Positions 7,254-44,806 of a stretch of DNA of 64,000 bases are shown one piece after another. The DNA is taken from NCBI GenBank assembly GCA_964521005.1, contig CAZFPT010000001.1, forward strand, positions 3,122 to 67,121. Reading direction: 5' to 3'. The notes beneath the pieces were generated by a model, which was given only the letters and a program-made list of their open reading frames with translations, had not been told where the DNA came from and searched no databases. This stretch comes from an uncultured Planctomycetaceae bacterium (lineage in GTDB: Bacteria > Planctomycetota > Phycisphaerae > SM23-33). The translations under genes and the position numbers were made by a program. Each line of letters starts with the position of its first letter. Position 1 is the stretch's first letter.

Positions 7254-7319
7254 TATACGGCCTGCCCGCGTGACCACAACCCCCGCCCGGATCGCCGGAG
7301 GCGCGATCCCCATCGAGGC

Positions 7320-7356: not shown

Positions 7357-7409
7357 GTGGGTGTGACAGTCGATCGGCAGGGCAGCGCCCCGCCGAGGTC
7401 AGCCGAACA

Positions 7410-7877
7410 CTACTTCTTCTTGGACGACTTGCGGGTCGCTTTCTTGGCGGCCTTCTTCGTCGTCTTGCCAGCCTTCTTGGTGGACTTCTTCGCGCGCTTC
7501 TTGGTTTTCTTCGCCGCCTTCTTTGTGGCCTTCTTCGCGCGCTTCGTCGTCTTCTTCGCGCGCTTCGCGGTCTTCTTGGCAGCCTTCTTCGTTGTCTTGC
7601 GAGCCTTCTTGGCCGCCTTCTTGGTGGACTTCTTCGCTCGCTTGGCAGTCTTCTTCGCGCGCTTCGCGGTCTTCTTGGCCGCCTTCTTCGTGGTCTTCTT
7701 CGCGCGCTTCGCGGTCTTCTTGGTAGCCTTCTTCGTGGCCTTCTTCACGCGCTTTGCTGCCTTCTTGGCGCGACTGACCGACTTCTTCGCCGCCTTCTTC
7801 GTCGTCTTCTTCGCGCGCTTCGCGGTCTTCTTGGCCGCCTTCTTCGCCGTCTTCTTCTTTGCTGTCTTTTTGGCCAT
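7410..7877 (-). CDS. histone H1-like Lys/Ala-rich DNA-binding protein
   Basis: 155 aa made of KKAAKK/TAKRAKK repeats (MAKKTAKKKTAKKAAKK...). Start is M35 of the track ORF, with an AAAGAGG RBS. Confidence 0.7.
   Translation of the reverse strand: MAKKTAKKKTAKKAAKKTAKRAKKTTKKAAKKSVSRAKKAAKRVKKATKKATKKTAKRAKKTTKKAAKKTAKRAKKTAKRAKKSTKKAAKKARKTTKKAAKKTAKRAKKTTKRAKKATKKAAKKTKKRAKKSTKKAGKTTKKAAKKATRKSSKKK
7440..7860 (-). repeat. in-frame coding tandem repeats (degenerate units encoding AKKxxKK)
   Basis: The nucleotide sequence shows recurring 'gtcttcttcgcgcgcttcgcggtcttcttggc(c/a)gccttcttcg' units. Confidence 0.6.
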
Positions 7878-8256
7878 GCCTCTTTCACCACCTTCCACTT
7901 GAGTCTGAACGAAATGTTCGGAGATATGTCCCCGATGCTTGTACCGTAGCGAGTGGTTCATGTGCAAGTATTTACACATGCCTTTCGATCTTAGTATTCG
8001 TCATAACGGGGATCATTCATTGAGGCTTTTCCACAAAGAGATGCGCACTTTCGGATTCGAAGCCATCGAAAACGCTTCGCCCGGCACGCTCGCCGGAGCG
8101 CCCGGCCGTCCCGGCGGCGTGCGAATGCGCCCGGCGAATGCGTCGCGCGGCGCGATCCCAATCGATCCGCAACGAGCAATTCCATCGCACCCCCGGCCGA
8201 TAGTATACTGAGATGTTCGCAGACGACCTGACGCTCCAGACACGAGGTGAAAACGG

Positions 8257-9036: not shown

Positions 9037-9109
9037 GCAACACCGGGCAGACTTCTCTGCCATGGAGCATCGGTCGGGGCGTGAGATCGCCGACGGCTGC
9101 GCACACAAA

Positions 9110-9158
9110 CGCCCGCACCATGAGGATGATCCTCACGGTGCGGGCGATTCGTTTTGCG
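9110..9158. terminator. bidirectional intrinsic terminator between esterase gene and V-ATPase operon
   Basis: 16-bp stem with 1 mismatch (cgcccgcaccatgagg / cctcacggtgcgggcg) and a 5-nt loop. It is followed by ATTCGTTTTG on the plus strand and GTTTGTGTG on the minus strand. Confidence 0.55.
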
Positions 9159-9219: not shown

Positions 9220-9675
9220 TTACGGCAGCAGCATGAACATGAAGACGAAGGCGAAAATGCCGACCGTCTCGGCGATGCCCATGGCGATCAGCGTGTTCGT
9301 GAAGGGCTTGCCCTCGGCTTCGGACATGGCCCGCACACCGCCGGCACCGATCTGCCCCTGCATCCAGGCGCTGAACAGCTCGCCCAGACCGGCGGCCAGG
9401 CCGATCACGAACAGCGCCCCGCCGTTGGCGGCGACGTACTCGGCATTACCCAGTGCGGGCAGGATCACCAGCAGCGAGACCAGCAGGCCGTAAATCGTCT
9501 GGCTGAGGGGCATGCCCAGCAGGACGATGTACTTGAAGTTCATCTGTTCGCCCGCGCGGGCTTCCTTTGCCCACGCGCCGGTGGCGGCCCGTCCGGCGGC
9601 TCCGATGCCCAGCGCGCTGCCGATCGCACCGAGGCCGAGAGGCAGGGCGAATCCGATCTGACCTAACCATTCCAT
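9220..9675 (-). CDS. atpK: V-type ATP synthase subunit K (proteolipid c)
   Basis: Glycine-rich double-hairpin proteolipid with a conserved carboxylate helix (GIAETVGIFAFV). AAGGAG RBS. It is the last gene of the V-ATPase operon. Confidence 0.85.
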   Translation of the reverse strand: MEWLGQIGFALPLGLGAIGSALGIGAAGRAATGAWAKEARAGEQMNFKYIVLLGMPLSQTIYGLLVSLLVILPALGNAEYVAANGGALFVIGLAAGLGELFSAWMQGQIGAGGVRAMSEAEGKPFTNTLIAMGIAETVGIFAFVFMFMLLP

Positions 9676-9676
9676 G

Positions 9677-11536
9677 TTATCGATCTCCTTCGTTTGAAGC
9701 GGTCTTCAGGGAGAAGGGGGCGTAGGGATAGCCGGCCCACTGCACTCCCGCATTCATCGAGAACTCCAGCATATTCAGTCGCACACCGTGTGCGAAAATC
9801 GCAATCAGACACAGGGCAATGTTCAGCGAGTGCGCCAGGACCAGTACCAGGATGGTAGCCGGAAGGGCCCACATCGAGGTATCGAGCATGCCGACCGCCA
9901 GGTCGTTGAATGCCGAGGCGATGTAGTAGCTCGCCAGGCCGACGGCCATCAGGCGGATGTAGCTGAGCATGTCGCCGAACGCCCCGGGGATGCCCATCAG
10001 GTTGCCCAGCACGCCCATGCCCACGCGCTTCAGCGGGTTCTTCGCCGGCGAGGTGAACAGGGCGATCAGGGCGAAGCTGCCCAGCAGGATCCACAGCGTC
10101 ACCATGCCCGGGAAGAGCTGGTCTTCCGGGAAGAACATCAGCCAGACCAGCGTGAACATCCCGAAGATGAAGCCGATCCAGCCGATCTCGGCGATGCCGC
10201 GCTGATCGGGCAGAATCATGATCGCCTGCTTGAGGTGCGCCAATACCAGGTGCACGCAGCCGATGATGAAGCTGATCTGCATGATCAGGTTTCGGCCTTC
10301 CTCGGCCTGGGCTTCCGGGCGCCACCAGACGGCGATGTTCTGCCACGCGCCGCCCATCGTGGCCCAGAGGCCTCCGGCGCCCATCATCTGTCCGGGACCG
10401 ACGCCGAAGGCGTTGCCGGTCAGCACGCCCCACAGCACCGTGGTCAGCGAGAAGATGACCACCAGTTGCCCGGTTTCCTTGTTGCCCGAGCGGGCGAGCT
10501 TGCCGTACGCCAGCAGGCCGATGATGGTAAAGATCAGCCCATAGCCCGCGTCGCCCACGAGCATGGCGGTGAAAATCGGCATCGCCAGCATGAAGAACGG
10601 CGACGGGTCGAACTCCCGGTAGCCGGGATTGGTCCCGAGCATGTTCAGCAGCGACTTGATCGGGCGGGCCCAGCGGGGATACCGGATGAGCGTGGGCGGC
10701 TGTTCGTCCTCTTCGGGGTCCATCACGCAGACGCCGGCGTTGACGTCGCGGGCGGCCAGGTCGTCCGAGAGGCGGTCGACCTCGGCGGCGGGCACCCATC
10801 CCTGGATGGCGTAGATGGCTTCGTGATCGATTCCGCTGCGCTCGGTTACGACGAACTCGGCGGACTGCTCGGCCTCGACGACCCGGGCACGGATGGCGTC
10901 CTTGAGGTTCGCCAGTTCGGCGAGGCGCTGGGCGTCCTGCTTCATTGCTTCGTCGATTTCGGCGGCTTCTGCCTGGATGCTCGGCCGATCGCGCTGGGGT
11001 TTCTCCAGCAGCTGCGCGTCTTCGGGGAGCTCGGGCGTCTGATCGCGATCGGTGACGACGGCGACGAGCACTTCGCCGCGGACCTCGTCGCCCTCCAGCG
11101 GCTGAACGCATTTGCCTTCGAGCTGGTCGGCCTGTTCGGCGGGCAGCTCCACGAAGTGCAGGGCGAGCCCGGCGCGTTCGATCGCATCGAGTTGGTCGAT
11201 GGTGACATCGCCCCACATCCGGAGTTCTTCGATCTGGCGGTGCAGGGCGGCGAGGCGCGTGTTCCGTTCGGTGTTGGCCCGGTCGATGGACATCACCTCG
11301 GCGGCGGCGTCCTCGGGCTCGATCTCCGGGGTGTTGGAGGCGGGTTCGACGTTGTCCAGAATAACCGCGGCCCGGTTGAGCATGTCCAGCCGTTGGGAGG
11401 TCTGCTCGTCGGCGACGGCCCGGTCGGGGTTCACCGGTTCGACGTGTACCATGCCCAGCTCGCGGACGGCCTGGAGCAGGGCGTCCCGATCGCGCCGGCA
11501 GGCGGCGACGTAGACCTTCTTCATCGGGGCGATCAT
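9677..11536 (-). CDS. atpI: V-type ATP synthase subunit I (a-subunit)
   Basis: Hydrophilic N-terminal half followed by multi-TM C-terminal half in the canonical position. Start is MIAPMKK (M104 of the track ORF), overlapping the atpD stop as ATGA. Confidence 0.8.
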   Translation of the reverse strand: MIAPMKKVYVAACRRDRDALLQAVRELGMVHVEPVNPDRAVADEQTSQRLDMLNRAAVILDNVEPASNTPEIEPEDAAAEVMSIDRANTERNTRLAALHRQIEELRMWGDVTIDQLDAIERAGLALHFVELPAEQADQLEGKCVQPLEGDEVRGEVLVAVVTDRDQTPELPEDAQLLEKPQRDRPSIQAEAAEIDEAMKQDAQRLAELANLKDAIRARVVEAEQSAEFVVTERSGIDHEAIYAIQGWVPAAEVDRLSDDLAARDVNAGVCVMDPEEDEQPPTLIRYPRWARPIKSLLNMLGTNPGYREFDPSPFFMLAMPIFTAMLVGDAGYGLIFTIIGLLAYGKLARSGNKETGQLVVIFSLTTVLWGVLTGNAFGVGPGQMMGAGGLWATMGGAWQNIAVWWRPEAQAEEGRNLIMQISFIIGCVHLVLAHLKQAIMILPDQRGIAEIGWIGFIFGMFTLVWLMFFPEDQLFPGMVTLWILLGSFALIALFTSPAKNPLKRVGMGVLGNLMGIPGAFGDMLSYIRLMAVGLASYYIASAFNDLAVGMLDTSMWALPATILVLVLAHSLNIALCLIAIFAHGVRLNMLEFSMNAGVQWAGYPYAPFSLKTASNEGDR

Positions 11537-12195
11537 GCGGCACCTCCCGGGGCGGACTGGGTGTGAATGCCTTCGTCCTCGTACACCGTGCCCTCCGTCT
11601 CGGCGAGCTTGTTCTTGGCGATCTTCGCGCGGCCGACCGCGGCGGTCATCTCGTCTCCCAGGCGGATGCGGATGCGTCGGATCGCTTCGCGGGCCTCGGG
11701 AATCTTGACCTTCTCGAAGAGGTTCACCCGCTGGATGATCTTCGTCAGTTCGGCGTTGAGCAGGCGGTACTGCTCGGCGAGCACGTCGCAGCGGGCCTTC
11801 ACCTCGTTGAGCTGGCGGATGTCCCGCAGGGCCTGGTCCACCCACGCCGGGGTGGCGAAGAGGCTGTAAACCGCCTCGGGGAAGTCCACCCCCTCGAAGA
11901 CCGGAAGACGCACGCCCGCGACGTTCTGCTTGCTCGTGCGGACATGGTCGGGCTTGGCGAGGTTGCGGATGTTCACGCCGGAGAAGTCGGCCAGCACGGC
12001 CTGGTACTGCCGGACGGACCGGATGGCCCTGTCGCGCCGGGCATCCATCTTGCGCTGCTCGGCCTGGATTTCCCGGAGGCGCACCTGGAGCATCTGCTGT
12101 TTGAGCTTCAGCATCGGCAGGTAGCGCTCGAAACGCTGCAGCGCGTCGCGCTGTCGCTTGAGCTCCGGTCGGGTCAGTTTGATCTTCTTAGCCAT
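11533..12195 (-). CDS. atpD: V-type ATP synthase subunit D
   Basis: 'MAKKIKLTRPELKRQRDALQRFERYLPMLKLKQQ...' is a typical V-ATPase D coiled-coil. Confidence 0.85.
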   Translation of the reverse strand: MAKKIKLTRPELKRQRDALQRFERYLPMLKLKQQMLQVRLREIQAEQRKMDARRDRAIRSVRQYQAVLADFSGVNIRNLAKPDHVRTSKQNVAGVRLPVFEGVDFPEAVYSLFATPAWVDQALRDIRQLNEVKARCDVLAEQYRLLNAELTKIIQRVNLFEKVKIPEAREAIRRIRIRLGDEMTAAVGRAKIAKNKLAETEGTVYEDEGIHTQSAPGGAA

Positions 12196-12233
12196 TGCTG
12201 CTCAATCCCGGTGGGGAGTGCACGGTAGTTCGC

Positions 12234-13613
12234 TCAGGCGGACGCCTCTGCCTCGGCGGTTTCTTCGGCGGAGGCCTGGTCGTCTGCCTCGCTCTGGGAC
12301 TCTTCCTCTTCGGCGGCGAGGTCCTTGGGCCAGTGCTTCTCGATGATCGATCGGCGGATGCCCGTCTCGAACGGCTCGAAACAGTCGGCGAGAATCTCCC
12401 AGCAGCGGTCCAGCGCCTCGAAGAGGGGAATGTTCACGCCGAGGTCCATGATCTGCGATTCGAACAGGTCGCCGTACTTCAGGAGCTTTCCGTCCCAGGG
12501 CGACATCTCGAAGCCCATGTCCCGCTTCTCGCGCGACTCGCGGCAACTGGCGTACAACTGCAGGCAGCCGTCCATGATCGCCCGGTGGTCGTCCCGCGTG
12601 TCGCCGTTGACCTGCTGCTTGAGACGCGAGAGCGAGCCGAACGGTTCGATTCGCCCGTTGCGGAGGTAGAACTGCCCTTCGGTGATGTATCCGGTGTTGT
12701 CGGGAACCGGGTGGGTCACGTCGTCGCCGGGCATGGTCACGCACGCCAGCAGCGTCATGGACCCGGCCCCGTCGAAGTCGACGGCCTTCTCGTATCGCCT
12801 GGCCAGCTGCGAGTAGAGGTCGCCCGGGTAGCCACGGTTGGAGGGGATCTGCTCCATCGTGATCGCGATCTCCTTGAGTGCGTCGGAGAAGGCGGTCATG
12901 TCGGTCAGCAGGCAGAGAACGCGCTTGCCCTGCAGGGCGAACTGCTCGCCGACGGCCAGGCAGAGGTCGGGGACGGTGAGGCATTCGACCGTCGGGTCGG
13001 CGGCGGTGTGCATGAACATGATGGTTCGCCCCAGCACGCCGCCTTCTTCGAAGGTTTTGCGGAACGTGAGGTAGTCGTCGTGGCGCAGCCCCATCCCGCC
13101 GAGGATGATGATGTCCGCGTCGGCCTGGAGCCCCACGCGGGCCAGCAGGGGGTTGTACGGCTCGCCGGCGACCGAGAAAATCGGCAGCTTCTGCGACTCG
13201 ACCAGCGAGTTGAACACGTCGATCATCGGGATGCCCGTCTCGATCATCTGATCGGGCATGCGACGCTGGACGGGGTTGACCGGGGGGCCGCCGATTTCGA
13301 CGGTTTCGGCTTCGACCTCGGGGCGGTCGTCGCGCGGGCGGGCCGAGCCATCGAACACGCGGCCGAGAAGGTCCTCGCTGAACGGGACGCGCATCGCGTG
13401 CCCGAGGAAGCGAACCTTGTCGCCCGTGGAGACGCCCTGGGTTCCGGCGAATATCTGCAGGGAGACCTGGTCGCTTTCGAGACGAATCACCTGTGCGAGC
13501 GAAGGCCCGCGGTCGGTGCTGATGATCGCCAGTTCGTCGTAGCCGATGCCCTCAGCCGTCACCGTCACGACGTTGCCGGCGATTTTCGTAATCTCGTCGT
13601 AGTACTTTCTCAT
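12234..13613 (-). CDS. atpB: V-type ATP synthase subunit B
   Basis: Nucleotide-binding fold without a catalytic P-loop ('[21 protein letters not shown]', 'SALKEIA', '[11 protein letters not shown]'). Start is MRKYYDE (M8 of the ORF). Confidence 0.9.
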
Positions 13614-13633
13614 GGTCGCTCGCTTCGCTCGCA

Positions 13634-14181
13634 ATTCTGAATTTCGAAATACGAATGTAGATTCAATTCTGAATATCGAATGCTCGACTGCTCATGCCCG
13701 TGTTCGGGCCTGACCTGCTATCATTTGTCGTTCCTGCTGCAACTCCTGAATATCTTGGAGAAGATCAGGTTCAGTTCTTTTGCTTCTTTCCACAGGCTGC
13801 GGGCCTGATCGGCTTGTTGCTCCTCGGCGGTTGCAATCATCCGAAGCCAGTGTTTCGTCTCGTGGCTCTCTTTGCGGCAGATTCCGATTTTGTTCCGAAA
13901 GTCCCGTTTTGAGACCGCGTCGTTTGCTTCGCAGTAGTTGGCTCCAACGCTGGTAGCCGCCCGGACCAACTGGCTGATCAACGGCGTCGTCACCGGCGTC
14001 TTTCCGATCGTCTTGGTGAACTGGATTACGGCCATTCCGAACTGCGCCGTGCGCTCCTCAAGGTCATACACACCCGGTTCGAGCTTGGACGTATCCATTC
14101 CTTGTTCCTGTCGGCCATTCTGAATTCGGCATCCGTCATTGATTCATCATTTATCATTCGTCATTCGGATTTCAGAATCTG
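13634..14181 (-). mobile_element. low-GC insertion cassette carrying a four-helix-bundle (TIGR02436) gene, flanked by imperfect inverted repeats
   Basis: Left flank 13666-13682 is ATTCTGAATATCGAATG. Right flank 14162-14178 is CATTCGGATTTCAGAAT, which matches the left flank 14/17 as its reverse complement. Extra copies of the ATTCTGAAT..CGAATG module occur at 13634-13657 and 14117-14132. GC is about 50-55% against about 68% around it. Confidence 0.4.
13721..14098 (-). CDS. four-helix-bundle protein (TIGR02436 family, so-called 23S rRNA intervening-sequence protein)
   Basis: Family signature 'YDLEERTAQFGMAVIQF....LISQLVRAATSVGANYCEANDAVSKRDFRNKIGICRKESHETKHWLRMI'. Confidence 0.8.
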   Translation of the reverse strand: MDTSKLEPGVYDLEERTAQFGMAVIQFTKTIGKTPVTTPLISQLVRAATSVGANYCEANDAVSKRDFRNKIGICRKESHETKHWLRMIATAEEQQADQARSLWKEAKELNLIFSKIFRSCSRNDK

Positions 14182-15963
14182 TCATTCCGCTGCTGCGGCC
14201 TCTTCTTTTTTCTCTTCGTCGGCCCGCACTTCGTCGCGGACATTCTGGCCCTTGTTCTCGATGAACGCGTCGATCTGCGAGAGGATCTTGTTGTACTCAT
14301 CGCTGTCGGTCGGGGCGAAGTTCCAGTTCCGGAACAGGTCCTGGATGTGGAAGATCGTCCGCCGCGCGACTTCCTTGTCCTCGAAGCCGTAATCCAGCTC
14401 GATCGCCTGCCAGATCTTGGCGAACACGAATTCCTGTCGCTCGCCGGGGCAGGAGGCGTCCACTTCGTCGAAGGCATTCTGCTGCAGGTAGCAGTTGTCG
14501 AACATCTCGGCCTTGAGCATGGTCACGAAGTCTTCCAGCGTCGTTCCTTCCTCCCCGACCACCGTCATCATCTGTTTGACGTCGTTGCCGCGACGCAGCA
14601 GCGAGCGTGCCAGCTCGACGGTGTCGCTGTCGATGATGCCCTTGTACTTCGACCAGGATTCCAGCGGGTCGATGGCCGGGTAACGGCGGGCGTCGGAGCG
14701 GGCGCGCGATAGGCCGTGGAACGCACCGACCACCTTCAGCGTGCCCTGCGTGACGGGTTCTTCAAAGTTGCCGCCTGCCGGGGAGACGGTTCCGCCGATC
14801 GTGACCGACGCGAGGGTTCCGTCGTTGAGCTCGACCTGCCCGGCCCGTTCGTAGAAGCTGGCGATTCGCGATTCCAGATACGCCGGGAACGCCTCTTCGC
14901 CGGGGATTTCTTCCAGTCGCCCCGAGACTTCACGCATCGCCTGGGCCCATCGACTGGTCGAGTCGGCCAGCAGCAGGACGTTCATGCCCATCTGTCGGTA
15001 GTATTCTGCCAGCGTGACGGCCGTGTAGACCGACGCCTCGCGGGCGGCCACGGGCATCGCGGAGGTGTTGCAGATGATGATGGTCCGCTCCATGAGGCTT
15101 TTGCCGGTGCGGGGGTCTTCCAGCTCGGGGAACTCGCGGATGGTTTCCACGACTTCGCCGGCACGTTCGCCGCAGGCGGCGATGATGACCACGTCCACGT
15201 CGGCGTACCGGGCGGTGAGCTGCTGGAGGACGGTTTTTCCGGCCCCGAAGGGTCCGGGGATGCAGTAGGTCCCGCCGCGATTGATCGGGAACATCGAGTC
15301 GATGATCCGCTGACCGGTCACGAGGGGCTCGGCGGGCATCAGCCGGGTCTTGTAGACGTCGATGGCTCGCTTGACGGGCCAATCCTGCTGCATCGTGACC
15401 GGCTTCTGCTCGCCCTGCGGGTCGGAGAGGACGGCGATTTCCTTCTCGACGGTATAGCTGCCCTTCTCGACGATGGACTCGACGGTGAAGGAGCCCTTCC
15501 AGCCGAACGGGACCATGACCTTATGCTCGAAGATTCCCTCGGGCGTGGTGCCCAGCGTATCGCCGGCGCGGACGGTATCGCCTTCCTTGACGGCCGGGGT
15601 GAACTCCCACTGCGTTTCGGCGTCCAGGCCGGGCAGATAGAGGCCGGGCTTGAGGAAGTATCCCGCCTCCTCGGCCACGTTGAACAGCGGGTTCTGCAGG
15701 CCGTCGTACACCTGCCCCAGCAGGCCGGGCCCGAGTGAGACCGAGAGCATCTCTTCTTCGAACTCGACGCTGTCGCCGATTTTCAGGTCGCGCGTTTCCT
15801 CGAACACCTGCAGGTCGGCCAGGCGTCCGCGAACGCGGATGACCTCGCTGAGCAGGCGTGCGCCGTCCTCTCGGATGCAGTAGGCGGTGGCGTTCTGGAC
15901 CACGCGTCCGGTGAGTTCTACGATCACCATGTTTCCGAAGATGGCTACGATTCGTCCGGTCAC
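14182..15963 (-). CDS. atpA: V-type ATP synthase catalytic subunit A
   Basis: Walker A 'GPFGAGKT' and the catalytic-subunit N-terminal pattern 'TGRIVAIFGNMVIVE'. GTG start with a GAGAGGA RBS. Confidence 0.9.
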   Translation of the reverse strand: MTGRIVAIFGNMVIVELTGRVVQNATAYCIREDGARLLSEVIRVRGRLADLQVFEETRDLKIGDSVEFEEEMLSVSLGPGLLGQVYDGLQNPLFNVAEEAGYFLKPGLYLPGLDAETQWEFTPAVKEGDTVRAGDTLGTTPEGIFEHKVMVPFGWKGSFTVESIVEKGSYTVEKEIAVLSDPQGEQKPVTMQQDWPVKRAIDVYKTRLMPAEPLVTGQRIIDSMFPINRGGTYCIPGPFGAGKTVLQQLTARYADVDVVIIAACGERAGEVVETIREFPELEDPRTGKSLMERTIIICNTSAMPVAAREASVYTAVTLAEYYRQMGMNVLLLADSTSRWAQAMREVSGRLEEIPGEEAFPAYLESRIASFYERAGQVELNDGTLASVTIGGTVSPAGGNFEEPVTQGTLKVVGAFHGLSRARSDARRYPAIDPLESWSKYKGIIDSDTVELARSLLRRGNDVKQMMTVVGEEGTTLEDFVTMLKAEMFDNCYLQQNAFDEVDASCPGERQEFVFAKIWQAIELDYGFEDKEVARRTIFHIQDLFRNWNFAPTDSDEYNKILSQIDAFIENKGQNVRDEVRADEEKKEEAAAAE

Positions 15964-15983: not shown

Positions 15984-16694
15984 CTACAGGATCGCCTCAT
16001 CGAGCAGATCGTCGTCCGCTTCGTTGAGGCGTTCCCATCGAATCAGCAGGGTCAGTTTGGTCGCGTAGGCAGCCAACTCGTCATCGGAGAAGGTGAACCA
16101 CGCGTCGTGATCTTCAATCCAGTTCCATCGGGCCCGGTCCAGCACTTTCAGCCCGTCCAGCGGATGGGCTGCCGAGGCCCATTCATTCACCGTTGTGCGG
16201 AGATCCACGTGAAACGGTGCCAGCTCGGGAGCCACCAGATACGGCGTGGCGTCCAGGCCCAGTTCCTTCGCCCGCGCCTCGGCGAGCTGGTTTCGCAGCG
16301 CCACCTCGAAGCCGATGTACTCCCGCAGAAAGCCGGCGTGGAGCGTCTGGGCCCGTTGGGCGGCGTGACGGTAGTACGCCGTCCAGATCGCGTCGGACGC
16401 GACGCGGCGGGAGCTGTCCTCGCTGCCCTGGAGGAAATCGGGCAGGGGCTCGGTCCCGTCCATCTGCGCCTCGGAGAGCACGAGCGGCTCGGCCTGGTCG
16501 ATTTCGCCCGACGCCAGCGCCTCGCGCTGCATCAGATCGTGTTCGAGCAGGAGCAGATCGATGGTCTCGCGGGCAGGGTGGTCGGCACCGAGCCATTCCA
16601 GGTACTCCGCCAGCGACAGCGGGGGAGCGATGCCCAGCTCACCCAGCGACGGCAGGGCGGTGATGGTGAAAAGGTTTTCGCCTCGCAGACCCAC
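15984..16694 (-). CDS. V-ATPase operon-associated protein (DUF2764 / Chlamydia CT309-like), possible C/stator-subunit substitute
   Basis: No recognisable motif. It is called on conserved synteny between atpE and atpA, as in Chlamydiae and Bacteroidetes operons. GTG start 3 nt after the atpE stop. Confidence 0.45.
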   Translation of the reverse strand: MGLRGENLFTITALPSLGELGIAPPLSLAEYLEWLGADHPARETIDLLLLEHDLMQREALASGEIDQAEPLVLSEAQMDGTEPLPDFLQGSEDSSRRVASDAIWTAYYRHAAQRAQTLHAGFLREYIGFEVALRNQLAEARAKELGLDATPYLVAPELAPFHVDLRTTVNEWASAAHPLDGLKVLDRARWNWIEDHDAWFTFSDDELAAYATKLTLLIRWERLNEADDDLLDEAIL

Positions 16695-16697
16695 GGA

Positions 16698-17351
16698 CTA
16701 CTCCCCTTCGGTCTGGTTGTCGGTGTCGACGGCGTGGTCGAGCGTCTCGCGGAGCTTGGGGCTGACCATTTCGCTGAGCATCTCGACGACCGAATCGAGC
16801 GTGACTTCGACGGTCGCACCGGCGCAGGTGTACTCGAAGCCGGACTGCTTGAGCGTGCCCTTCAGATCGATCCCGATGTGCTTGCGGGTTTCCTCGACGC
16901 GCTCCTTGCCGATCTCGCTCAGGGCCCAGTCGACCAGTTGGTCGCGCAGCTCGGGTTTGACGGAAATGCGGATCTGGTCGGTTCCCTCGCGGTCGCTGTG
17001 GGCGTAGGAGGTGACCACCTCGTGGAGGACCTTGCCCAGGAAATCCACGCTGTCGAGCGTTTCCTGCGTGCCGGCCCGCACCACCGACTGCAGGGCCCGG
17101 TTGAGCGAATCCCGCAGCTTCAGGACGGTGTCCCGGGCGGCAAGGTTCAGCTCCGTCTGGGAGCGTTCGACGTACTGCCGGGCTTCCTGCTTTGCGTCGT
17201 CGACGATCTTCCGGGCCTTCTGCTCGGCGTCGGCGATGATCTTCTCGGCGTCTTTCTGAGCCTGCTGACGGAGCTGGTCGGCCTGCTTCTCGCCGGCTTC
17301 GACGCCTTCCTGCTGGAGTTTGCTTACGAACGACTGGATTGTCTCGGCCAT
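16698..17351 (-). CDS. atpE: V-type ATP synthase subunit E
   Basis: Charged coiled-coil N-terminus 'EAGEKQADQLRQQAQKDAEKIIADAEQKARKIVDDAKQEARQY' in the first-gene position. Confidence 0.75.
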   Translation of the reverse strand: MAETIQSFVSKLQQEGVEAGEKQADQLRQQAQKDAEKIIADAEQKARKIVDDAKQEARQYVERSQTELNLAARDTVLKLRDSLNRALQSVVRAGTQETLDSVDFLGKVLHEVVTSYAHSDREGTDQIRISVKPELRDQLVDWALSEIGKERVEETRKHIGIDLKGTLKQSGFEYTCAGATVEVTLDSVVEMLSEMVSPKLRETLDHAVDTDNQTEGE

Positions 17352-44136: not shown

Positions 44137-44431
44137 CCTGCGTGTCGGCAGACACGGCCTGGAAGGCCGTGCGACGGTAAGCGTCGCATGGGCTTCGGAG
44201 CCCATGGTCTGTTCTGTTTTCGTCTTCGTCTTCGGCGATGCGCCCGCAACAAGTTGCGAGCCCTACAGCTGGCCCTGCAATTCTGTTTCGCCTTCGGCAA
44301 CCCTGCGTGTCGGCAGACACGGCCTGGAAGGCCGTGCGACGGTAAGCGTCGCATGGGCTTCGGAGCCCATGGTCTGTTCTGTTTTCGTCTTCGTCTTCGG
44401 CGATGCGCCCGCAACAAGTTGCGAGCCCTAC
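44137..44431 (+). repeat. 165-bp-period tandem duplication of a 130-bp hairpin-rich element (two full copies; 34-bp partial third copy at 44682-44715)
   Basis: Copies 44137-44266 and 44302-44431 are near-identical. Each contains the hairpins gtgtc-ggca-gacac, ggcc-tggaa-ggcc, cgacg-gtaag-cgtcg, catgggct-tcgg-agcccatg and cgcaac-aa-gttgcg. Confidence 0.75.
44187..44235 (+). terminator. intrinsic terminator-like hairpin + U-tract inside repeat copy 1 (second identical copy at 44352-44400)
   Basis: 8-bp stem CATGGGCT/AGCCCATG with a UCGG loop, then GTCTGTTCTGTTTTCGTCTTCGTCTTCGG. Confidence 0.45.
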
Positions 44432-44441
44432 GGTTGACCGA

Positions 44442-44509
44442 CCCCAACCAAGGGCGCCCGGCGTTGTGCAGCGACCCCCCAACCAAGGGTGCCCGGCGTT
44501 GTGCAGCGA
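44442..44509 (+). repeat. 35-bp-period tandem repeat (CCCCAACCAAGGGYGCCCGGCGTTGTGCAGCGA x2)
   Basis: Two copies at 44442-44474 and 44477-44509. Nearby is a 21-bp direct repeat CCGGCACAGCCCCGGGCACCC at 44617 and 44718. Confidence 0.6.
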
Positions 44510-44806
44510 GCCCAAGCGAGCTGAGCAACCCGGTTGGTCCGGATCGCGCTGCAGGTAGTGGTCTGACATCGCGACAGCCGGGTTGCTCCGTTCCTCCCTC
44601 GCTGCGCTCGGTCCGACCGGCACAGCCCCGGGCACCCGAAGTTTCGTTAGGTTCCAAGGAGTGATCGTCCCGCATCCACCTGCGATGCGCCCGCAACAAG
44701 TTGCGAGCCCTACGGCACCGGCACAGCCCCGGGCACCCTTGGTGGAGGCAGGACGCCCGCTGAGGCCGAAGCATACCGCCGCTTGTCGGGCCGCCCCGCC
44801 GGTCGC

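Follow-up and report, generated by a model that had tools for sequence, protein, structure and literature searches.

An armed four-helix-bundle gene cassette in the atpA-atpB spacer of a planctomycete V-ATPase operon and its probable kinship with 23S rRNA intervening sequences

Introduction

The V-type ATPase (V-ATPase) operon of an uncultured Planctomycetaceae bacterium (class Phycisphaerae) holds a 548-bp segment of low G+C content (GC) between atpA and atpB, which raises the question of what this segment is, how long it has occupied the junction and how an operon could tolerate it there. The segment lies in a stretch of 64,000 nucleotides (assembly GCA_964521005.1, contig CAZFPT010000001.1, positions 3,122 to 67,121), called the window below, and carries an open reading frame (ORF) for a four-helix-bundle (4HB) protein between two inverted-repeat arms. 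A first-pass annotation had read it as a small mobile cassette resembling a miniature inverted-repeat transposable element (MITE).

Intervening sequences (IVSs) in 23S rRNA that bear an ORF, termed 'S23p', occur in Leptospira, Coxiella burnetii, Xanthomonas and Brucella, and the question of what the IVSs and their conserved ORF do and where they come from has stood since the early 1990s. In Coxiella, RNase III excises an IVS that combines the S23p ORF with inverted repeats; the ORF is preceded by tandem heptameric GACAGAT repeats, at the first of which the enzyme makes its 5' cut (PMC4990558).

Our analysis indicates that the 548-bp segment is probably an ORF-bearing member of a very widespread family of promoterless, operon-hitchhiking cassettes, IVS-like in character, whose arms form a stem in the mRNA. 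That it is a 4HB cassette with the architecture of this family is highly probable, while the proposed step at the level of an RNA stem and RNase III, drawn by analogy with rRNA, has somewhat less than an even chance of being correct. We found no description of an operon-embedded, heptamer-armed 4HB cassette in open-access papers or bioRxiv preprints.

Results

A 548-bp cassette fills the atpA-atpB junction

All genes of the V-ATPase operon lie on the minus strand of the window. The segment (13634-14181) starts directly after the atpA TGA and stops 20 nt short of the atpB ATG, as first annotated. At its upstream edge, the atpA stop codon (14182-14184) falls within a heptamer-like motif, GGAATGAC. 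The atpB ATG at 13613 gives the N-terminus MRKYYDE, which is kept in relatives, and the 20-nt leader before it, which has no strong Shine-Dalgarno sequence, is kept in the close relatives L005 and L014 (loci are given by number throughout). As transcribed, the segment consists of a 5' arm, the 4HB ORF and a 3' arm. Repeats of the 5' arm include ATTCTGAAATCCGAATGACGAATG at 14178-14155 and CCGAATTCAGAATGG, which contains ATTCAGAAT, at 14125-14117, with a landmark, GAATCAATGAC (AATCAAT at 14144-14138), between them; an AGGA-type ribosome-binding stretch separates these repeats from the ORF. The 3' arm carries CATTCGATATTCAGAAT at 13682-13666 and CATTCGTATTTCGAAATTCAGAAT at 13657-13634.

The GC of the segment is low, as noted in the first pass, at 0.513 overall, 0.550 in the ORF, 0.42 in the 5' arm and 0.49 in the 3' arm. 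The surroundings, put then at about 68%, are in fact nearer 65% (atpA 0.636, atpB 0.651, whole window 0.650). GC at third codon positions is 0.72 in the 4HB ORF versus 0.85 and 0.89 in atpA and atpB. The flanks read ...GAATGACAG / element / TGCGAGCG... and contain no direct repeat, and hence no target-site duplication. A scan of the cassette region found no promoter-like or terminator-like site. Neither the region at permissive thresholds nor the whole window matched any Rfam family, rRNA included, and a tRNA scan found no tRNA.

The ORF encodes an S23p-type four-helix bundle

The predicted membership of the protein in TIGR02436 is borne out by a match of 72.2 bits (cut-off 24) over profile positions 3-107 of 109, and PF05635 is matched at 56.4 bits (cut-off 33.8). 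The protein also matches PDB entry 2RLD (phmmer, E=6e-14). An AlphaFold (AF2) model comprises four helices with a predicted local distance difference test score (pLDDT) of 90.3, and its best Foldseek matches are 2RLD and 2GSC (template-modelling scores, TM, of 0.83 and 0.80), both of them structures of the 'S23 ribosomal protein family' that were crystallised with five chains.

Compared with its 85%-identical orthologue in L005, the ORF has a nonsynonymous divergence (dN) of 0.095, a synonymous divergence (dS) of 0.887 and a dN/dS of 0.11, which indicates purifying selection. The dS is about 2.6 times that of the adjacent atpA (0.34), a difference compatible with a relaxed codon constraint or with a paralogue having replaced the gene. 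Mean column identity across an alignment of 30 homologues is 62%. Many members of the family have variable N-termini that start MTNE, MTNG or MTNS, corresponding to ATGACGAATGA; the final heptamers of the 5' arm thus often encode the start codon and first residues. Arrays of CGAATGA supply TGA and ATG in all three frames. The protein has no match among the PADLOC defence models, and viral contigs hold no close relative of the cassette.

PF05635 is homologous to Avd, which binds nucleic acid and reverse transcriptase (PMC10053308), and the homologous fold and family would suit an Avd-type accessory protein of a diversity-generating retroelement. However, the immediate neighbours of the ORF are atpA and atpB, no reverse transcriptase gene adjoins it, and the region 13500-14300 holds neither a pair of template and variable repeats nor any long direct repeat. 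The genomic setting is entirely different, and we rejected this reading, whose chance of being right is practically negligible, because the defining parts of such a retroelement are missing.

Cassettes of the same design occur between many pairs of operon genes

More than 8000 homologues were scored, a count that is a lower bound, and many are about 70% identical to the window protein. We surveyed 78 non-redundant cassettes, taken from 80 metagenome loci together with loci fetched via protein and AtpA searches. They have a common design, in which the upstream stop codon is followed by tandem heptamers, a 4HB ORF of about 120 codons, the reverse complements of the heptamers and the downstream start codon. 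The median distance is 3 nt from the upstream stop to the start of the arm and 20 nt from the end of the arm to the downstream ATG. A landmark GAATCAA(T) often lies within the 5' array and TTGATTC in the 3' array; AATCAA occurs in the 5' arm of 34 and TTGATT in the 3' arm of 32 of the 77 cassettes compared, and they occur in the wrong arm in only 4 and 1. Cassettes are co-oriented with the neighbouring genes in 62 of 73 and 60 of 72 cases, judged by a crude longest-ORF test that misjudges at least L011. The window element fits this pattern in its anatomy: its 4HB ORF is co-oriented, and the stop and start codons of its neighbours are flush with complementary heptamer arms.

The host junctions are diverse. 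Pfam tallies return AtpA/AtpB, RpoB/RpoC, DUF58/BatA-VWA, YicC/Gmk, PSD1/DUF1501 and ABC ATPase/ABC-2 permease as recurrent sites, and about 45 junction types in all hold cassettes; P0009, for example, is 68% identical to the window protein and sits between rpoB and rpoC. The target preference first suggested, for intergenic sites in highly expressed operons, therefore stands with respect to spacers between co-oriented, co-transcribed genes, but is too narrow with respect to expression, since many hosts are ordinary operons (DUF58/BatA, ABC transporters, PSD1/DUF1501).

Relatedness among the 4HB proteins follows the site only locally. Orthologues at one site form tight clades; across lineages, kinship does not go by site. 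The protein of L008, at atpA/atpB, is 75% identical to that of an rpoB/rpoC cassette and 72% identical to that of the window, and in a neighbour-joining tree of 77 proteins the atpA/atpB cassettes as a whole were not monophyletic, although with 120 amino acids this tree is poorly resolved and we treat it as suggestive.

Arrays without an ORF were also found. The metagenome contig Ga0116114_1000455 (L077) contains one operon with four intercistronic elements, namely two ORF-less hairpins whose arms match those of its own 4HB cassette, that cassette, and a GxxExxY gene. ORF-less heptamer-array hairpins occupy gaps at L077:1296-1445, L077:6442-6558, L065:1174-1288, L106:1506-1585, L119:3010-3109 and L089:2246-2347, and in L077 and L065 the hairpin arms, including the landmark GAATCAAAT/TTTGATTC, match the 4HB cassette of the same locus. 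From their composition (5' arm, 'AAAACGG', 3' arm), the L077 hairpins look like deletion derivatives. The many occupied junctions and the ORF-less derivatives together imply that the family is, or was, mobile at the DNA level.

Two further observations concern the surroundings of these cassettes. The GxxExxY gene of L077 (2578-2961), which encodes a 127-aa PD-(D/E)XK protein (TIGR04256, 146 bits; PF13366), lies between the MoxR and DUF58 genes and is flanked by an inverted repeat of its own, 31 nt long (ACCGCGGAGTGCGCAGAGAACGCGGAGAAGA / TCTTCTCTGCGTTCTCTGCGATCTCCGCGGT), which suggests that it is a second cargo type of intercistronic inverted-repeat cassettes. At L081:1372-1480, the 3' flank of a PSD1/DUF1501 cassette opens with about nine direct CGAATGA repeats in the orientation of the 5' arm before the complementary repeats follow; with these extra repeats a second element may begin in tandem.

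The two arms are complementary across the family

The annotated inverted copies in the window, 13666-13682 and 14162-14178, match at 14 of 17 positions as claimed, and a better outer pair, 13634-13657 and 14155-14178, extends over 24 nt at 83%. The motif ATTCWGAAT occurs 3 times in 64 kb against 0.17 expected, and the 17-mer module 4 times against 0.21 expected, in every case at the cassette; no further copy of the cassette motifs lies elsewhere in the window. Length and complementarity by themselves do not make the inverted repeat exceptional, as it ranks 15th of 85 pairs in this GC-rich window (pairs of at least 18 nt, arms at most 700 nt apart). Its credibility comes from the enrichment of AT-rich motifs, from its placement flush with both genes and, above all, from the homologous arms of related cassettes.

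In the minimum free energy (MFE) fold of the window cassette, the 5' arm pairs with the 3' arm around the ORF (z=-1.5; z=-2.5 with the arms only), and a long-range stem closing the ORF also appears in the MFE folds of L008 (z=-2.3) and of the rpoB/rpoC cassette L011 (z=-6.1). The element had been suggested to carry its own promoter or an RNA structure; the promoter found no counterpart in the scan described above, and a stem closing the ORF is predicted.

Complementarity between the arms is conserved family-wide. About 60 of the 78 cassettes have arm alignments of 30-85 matched bases, and the two arms of one cassette form a duplex at -92.9 kcal/mol, versus -68.5 when arms are combined across loci and -62.7 when they are shuffled (p=9e-11). 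When cassettes were anchored on the landmark (n=12), 81.6% of positions formed Watson-Crick pairs, versus 67.7±2.7% with permuted partners; sliding the arms left 11-29% paired at 1-3 nt and 58% at 7 nt. Heptamers differ with the host, with CGAATGA or CGAAATT in GC-rich and CTAATTC or TTAATTT in AT-rich genomes, and CCAATGA and CCGAGGG in addition. Among loci, the type varies between CGAATGA, CTAATTC, TTAATTT, CCAATGA, CCGAGGG and TGCGGAT, and the 3' arm is always complementary.

The window copy is an old resident of its junction

The atpA/atpB junctions compared fall into three states: tight, with a full 4HB cassette, and with an ORF-less remnant. A scan with AtpA (one genome per species) assigned the window to Phycisphaerae (Planctomycetota), and the nearest metagenome-assembled genome (MAG) was L014, at 98% identity. 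Tight, empty junctions, about 5-40 nt long and in some cases with a stop codon that overlaps the next start, are found in the Planctomycetota MAGs L020 (71% AtpA identity) and L021 (69%) and in every other phylum sampled, at about 15 loci with labels such as Myxococcota, Candidatus Accumulibacter, Spirochaetes, Omnitrophota, Chlamydiota and Bacteroidales. Cassettes or remnants, on the other hand, occupy the junction in relatives down to 72% AtpA identity. Full cassettes are present in L005 (AtpA 97.6%, 4HB protein 85% identical to that of the window), L008 (72.5% and 72%), L019 (74% and 60%) and the pair L059 and L060 (AtpA about 77% over the C-terminus, 4HB 68% and 72%). In L014, L017 (85% AtpA) and L018 (74%) the junction contains a low-GC remnant of about 150-210 nt in which both arms are still in place but the ORF is gone; L018 shares the arm motif AAATGCC/GGCATTT with the L019 lineage. 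The outer 5' arm, GGAATGACARATTCTGAAATSCGAATGACGA, is nearly identical in the window and L008 despite their 72% AtpA identity. Given this shared arm and the occupied junctions, the insertion predates the divergence of these lineages, so that the window copy is an old resident and not a recent insertion, and the ORF has been lost repeatedly at this junction in its relatives.

Turnover can be seen at the junction. L005 carries at 519-1234 a remnant, made up of the 5' arm, the last ~30 nt of the ORF and the 3' flank, followed by a complete gene; the copies of a direct repeat, 119 nt long and 95% identical, lie on both sides of this gene. The sequence at L014:5783-5994 corresponds to the L005 remnant alone, at 94% identity. 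The MAG contigs L015 and L016 end inside the direct repeat, which looks like an assembly break caused by the repeat.

At the neighbouring atpB/atpD junction, a second, divergent 4HB subfamily (24-33% identity to the window protein), with heptamers TGCGGAT/ATCCGCA or TTCGGAT, is found in L019 (6132-6509), L059 (5854-6219) and L060 (5051-5308), and L018 has a near-perfect ORF-less hairpin at 7256-7316. The junction is empty in the window, L014 and L009, and at the occupied sites the native spacer has been replaced, not duplicated.

These data bear on the view that the window copy is a MITE-like, non-autonomous transposon bounded by terminal inverted repeats and recently inserted between atpA and atpB in this genome. 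Inverted termini, low GC, a precise intergenic position, local motif enrichment, and a family with many sites and ORF-less derivatives would all suit such an event. However, relatives as distant as 72% in AtpA have the junction occupied too, and the outer arm is common to the window and L008. The exact window protein was seen only on contigs with the same atpA-4HB-atpB order, its cluster at 90% identity consists of one sequence in the atpA/atpB context only, and in a collection of 15 billion proteins none more than 90% identical was seen at any other site; the next nearest is the 85%-identical orthologue at the same site, and the remaining homologues are at most 75% identical among the matches listed. 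Of the features of a MITE, the window cassette has the terminal inverted repeats; it shows no target-site duplication, has no second copy of its motifs in 64 kb and does have coding capacity. An intact 125-aa ORF under purifying selection sets it apart from a MITE in the strict sense, which by definition excludes such an ORF. A recent MITE-like arrival is thus already largely refuted for the window copy, and we consider it very unlikely. What survives of the original proposal is a discrete unit of ORF and inverted arms that recurs between unrelated gene pairs and has ORF-less hairpin counterparts in other genomes.

Long residence could also suggest an ordinary resident gene for an accessory or regulatory component of the V-ATPase, with ordinary intercistronic hairpins as its flanking repeats. 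Persistence at one junction, co-orientation, purifying selection and the lack of a promoter or terminator of its own would agree with this. Against it, proteins 62-76% identical lie between rpoB/rpoC, DUF58/BatA, YicC/Gmk, ABC transporter genes and other pairs; none of the other phyla sampled has the gene in its V-ATPase operon; the ORF is gone and arm remnants are left in the closest relatives (L014, L017 and L018); and relatedness of the 4HB protein does not track the insertion site. An accessory subunit gene is therefore more improbable still than a recent transposon.

Resemblance to known systems

Among known elements, the 23S rRNA IVS shares most with the IVS-like cassette that we propose. 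Both carry a PF05635 protein whose ORF lies between inverted repeats that pair as a stem in the RNA (a prediction in our case), both have tandem heptamers upstream of the ORF, and both lack a promoter and ride on the host transcript, in our case by presumed read-through; both also have ORF-less versions and a sporadic distribution. They differ in the host, which for the window is a protein-coding operon, between atpA and atpB and with no rRNA in the window. An IVS is located in helix 9, 25 or 45 of 23S rRNA, whereas the cassette replaces an intercistronic spacer and not a helix tip. Purifying selection acts on the window ORF, which is intact; that of Coxiella, by contrast, is in decay and probably not translated. 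RNase III excision is known for the Coxiella IVS and would apply to the window cassette only by analogy.

Systems of repetitive extragenic palindromes, in which hairpins (REPs and REPINs) accompany REP-associated tyrosine transposases (RAYTs), and pairs of MITEs and transposons resemble the cassettes in their short inverted-repeat hairpins dispersed in operon spacers, in having inverted copies of these repeats on either side of a protein gene, and in ORF-less derivatives (L077, L065, L018). In contrast to these systems, the cargo here is not a transposase of the tyrosine or DDE type but a 4HB protein lacking any known catalytic motif, the heptamer arrays vary between genomes, no target-site duplication was seen and the copies are not near-identical.

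Polycistronic mRNAs, such as the early transcripts of phage T7, contain intercistronic stem-loops processed by RNase III. As in these, a long double-stranded stem between cistrons could separate the messages and leave stabilising hairpin ends. Such stem-loops are, however, short and local and enclose no gene, whereas the predicted stem here closes a 380-nt ORF and its cleavage would have to be assumed.

Integron cassettes are also promoterless ORFs that need transcription from outside and have an imperfect inverted-repeat site of the kind used in recombination. Unlike these, the 4HB cassettes have repeats on both sides of the ORF, are accompanied by neither an integrase nor attI, and are scattered singly in housekeeping operons instead of being arrayed. 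With its defining parts missing, this reading was rejected on the same ground as the retroelement.

The V-ATPase operon and other features of the window

The features of the V-ATPase operon are collected in Table 1. A near-perfect hairpin at 9107-9149 (21-nt arms, 90% complementary, 1-nt loop) lies about 70 nt downstream of the c-subunit gene and faces a convergent gene; it is likely a bidirectional terminator that closes the operon.

Table 1. Coordinates of the V-ATPase operon and its atpA-atpB cassette in the window
Feature	Position	Strand	Remarks
E-like subunit gene	16698-17351	-	V-ATPase operon
DUF2764 gene	15984-16694	-	V-ATPase operon
atpA, V-type ATPase catalytic subunit A	14182-15963	-	NF003220, 760.8 bits; PF00006
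5' arm of cassette (as transcribed)	14099-14181	-	AT-rich, GC 0.42; heptamer-derived repeats
4HB protein gene, 125 aa	13721-14098	-	TIGR02436/PF05635; Avd-like fold
3' arm of cassette	13634-13720	-	Reverse-complement repeats; pairs with 5' arm in MFE and arms-only folds
Leader, 20 nt, TGCGAGCGAAGCGAGCGACC	13614-13633	-	From end of 3' arm to atpB ATG
atpB, V-type ATPase subunit B	12234-13613	-	NF002555, 710.8 bits
atpB/atpD junction, 38 nt	12196-12233	-	Empty in the window
atpD	11533-12195	-	PF01813
c-subunit gene	9220-9675	-	Last V-ATPase gene of the operon

Elsewhere in the window, a low-GC patch at 7400-7900 was considered as a second element and rejected, being instead the gene for a Lys/Ala-rich repeat protein. 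This gene (7410-7876, minus strand), low in GC and strongly AT-skewed, encodes a repetitive protein (AKKTAKKAAKK... repeats) that has no Pfam match and resembles nucleoid proteins of the histone H1-like or Hc1 type. An intergenic, GC-rich repeat cluster at 44401-44759 contains GCGATGCGCCCGCAACAAGTTGCGAGCCCTACGG twice in direct orientation and CCCCAACCAAGGGYGCCCGGCGTTGTGCAGCGA twice, together with two inverted partial copies (GCACAGCCCCGGGCACCC).

Discussion

We propose the following account of how a 4HB cassette could persist inside an operon. Having neither promoter nor terminator, the cassette would be included in the V-ATPase operon mRNA through transcriptional read-through. Its arms, which abut the atpA stop and end 20 nt from the atpB start, would then pair into the long predicted stem and loop out the 4HB ORF. 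The stem may make the insertion tolerable in one of two ways. By analogy with the rRNA IVS, RNase III could cut it and release separate atpA, 4HB and atpB messages; alternatively, the stem could rejoin the upstream stop with the downstream start. This is the least certain step of the scheme. Either cleavage or such bridging of stop and start would explain how insertions into formerly tight, probably translationally coupled junctions came to be tolerated. The 4HB protein would be made, is subject to purifying selection and might bind the arms. The family has reached many operon junctions and given rise to ORF-less hairpin derivatives, and it therefore is, or was, mobile in DNA with no enzyme of its own encoded in the cassette.

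Several results weigh against this account. The survey is biased to one subfamily, as the 80 metagenome loci are the best matches to the window protein, and the genes neighbouring the cassettes were called heuristically. The whole-region fold of the window is not significant (z=-1.5), and its arms are among the weaker, relatively degenerate ones, with a local score of 32 against a typical 50-90. The ORF-less atpA/atpB remnants of L014, L017 and L018, which look decayed, reach folding energies no better than those of shuffled sequences. Duplex energy does not differ between the sense and antisense strands (-92.9 versus -92.0, p=0.55), and the arm mismatches have no excess of G-U pairs (77 sense-wobble, 99 antisense-wobble and 310 transversions). 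Finally, the RNase III analogy rests on work on rRNA IVSs in other phyla.

The equal energies of the two strands and the lack of G-U bias mean that the complementarity of the arms could as well be maintained at the DNA level. Under such an explanation, which recalls REP/RAYT systems or hairpin transposons, the arms would form hairpins or cruciforms, in DNA that is single-stranded or supercoiled, recognised by a recombinase of the host or acting in trans, the 4HB protein may be an arm-binding cofactor of maintenance or mobility, and the RNA stem would be incidental. Near-identical arms at several junctions of one operon, with or without an ORF, look like an autonomous element accompanied by MITE or REPIN derivatives. 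Arms differ in sequence type according to the host genome and yet remain complementary to each other, a pattern suggestive of gene conversion between the two or of their concerted evolution, and the tandem cassette with its 119-nt direct repeat, together with its deletion counterpart, shows recombination at the site. However, neither a nuclease nor a recombinase is encoded in the cassette, and target-site duplication is lacking; for the strong bias of orientation to the sense of the host operon and the placement flush with stop and start codons, selection at the level of RNA or translation is the simpler explanation; and the homologous element in rRNA is experimentally known to be processed as RNA (PMC4990558). 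We therefore regard a purely DNA-level role of the arms as rather unlikely and retain the hitchhiking, IVS-like cassette as the probable identity of the segment.

A broader interpretation is offered here as a speculation that we consider possible but doubtful. The 4HB cassettes with heptamer arms might be previously unrecognised and very widespread mobile elements of tight, co-transcribed intercistronic junctions, with the 23S rRNA IVS as one special landing site. Their arms would render an insertion harmless in RNA, through excision or stop-start bridging, and the 4HB protein would be the element's own arm-binding factor of maintenance or mobility, possibly working with a host enzyme or a reverse transcriptase; the GxxExxY cassette may belong here as well.

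In summary, 4HB cassettes occur in the spacers of many uncultured lineages, including named Planctomycetota (Phycisphaerae) MAGs. This suggests that the IVS is no peculiarity of rRNA but one form of a general cassette of a 4HB gene and inverted heptamers, and the question of what IVSs do becomes testable in ordinary operons. The cassettes also matter for genome analysis: inferences from operons and gene neighbourhoods would be misled if 4HB genes were taken for operon members, and assemblies break at cassette repeats, as in L015 and L016. For the organisms that carry them, processing between cistrons could have consequences for the stoichiometry of the V-ATPase, RNA polymerase and other such complexes.

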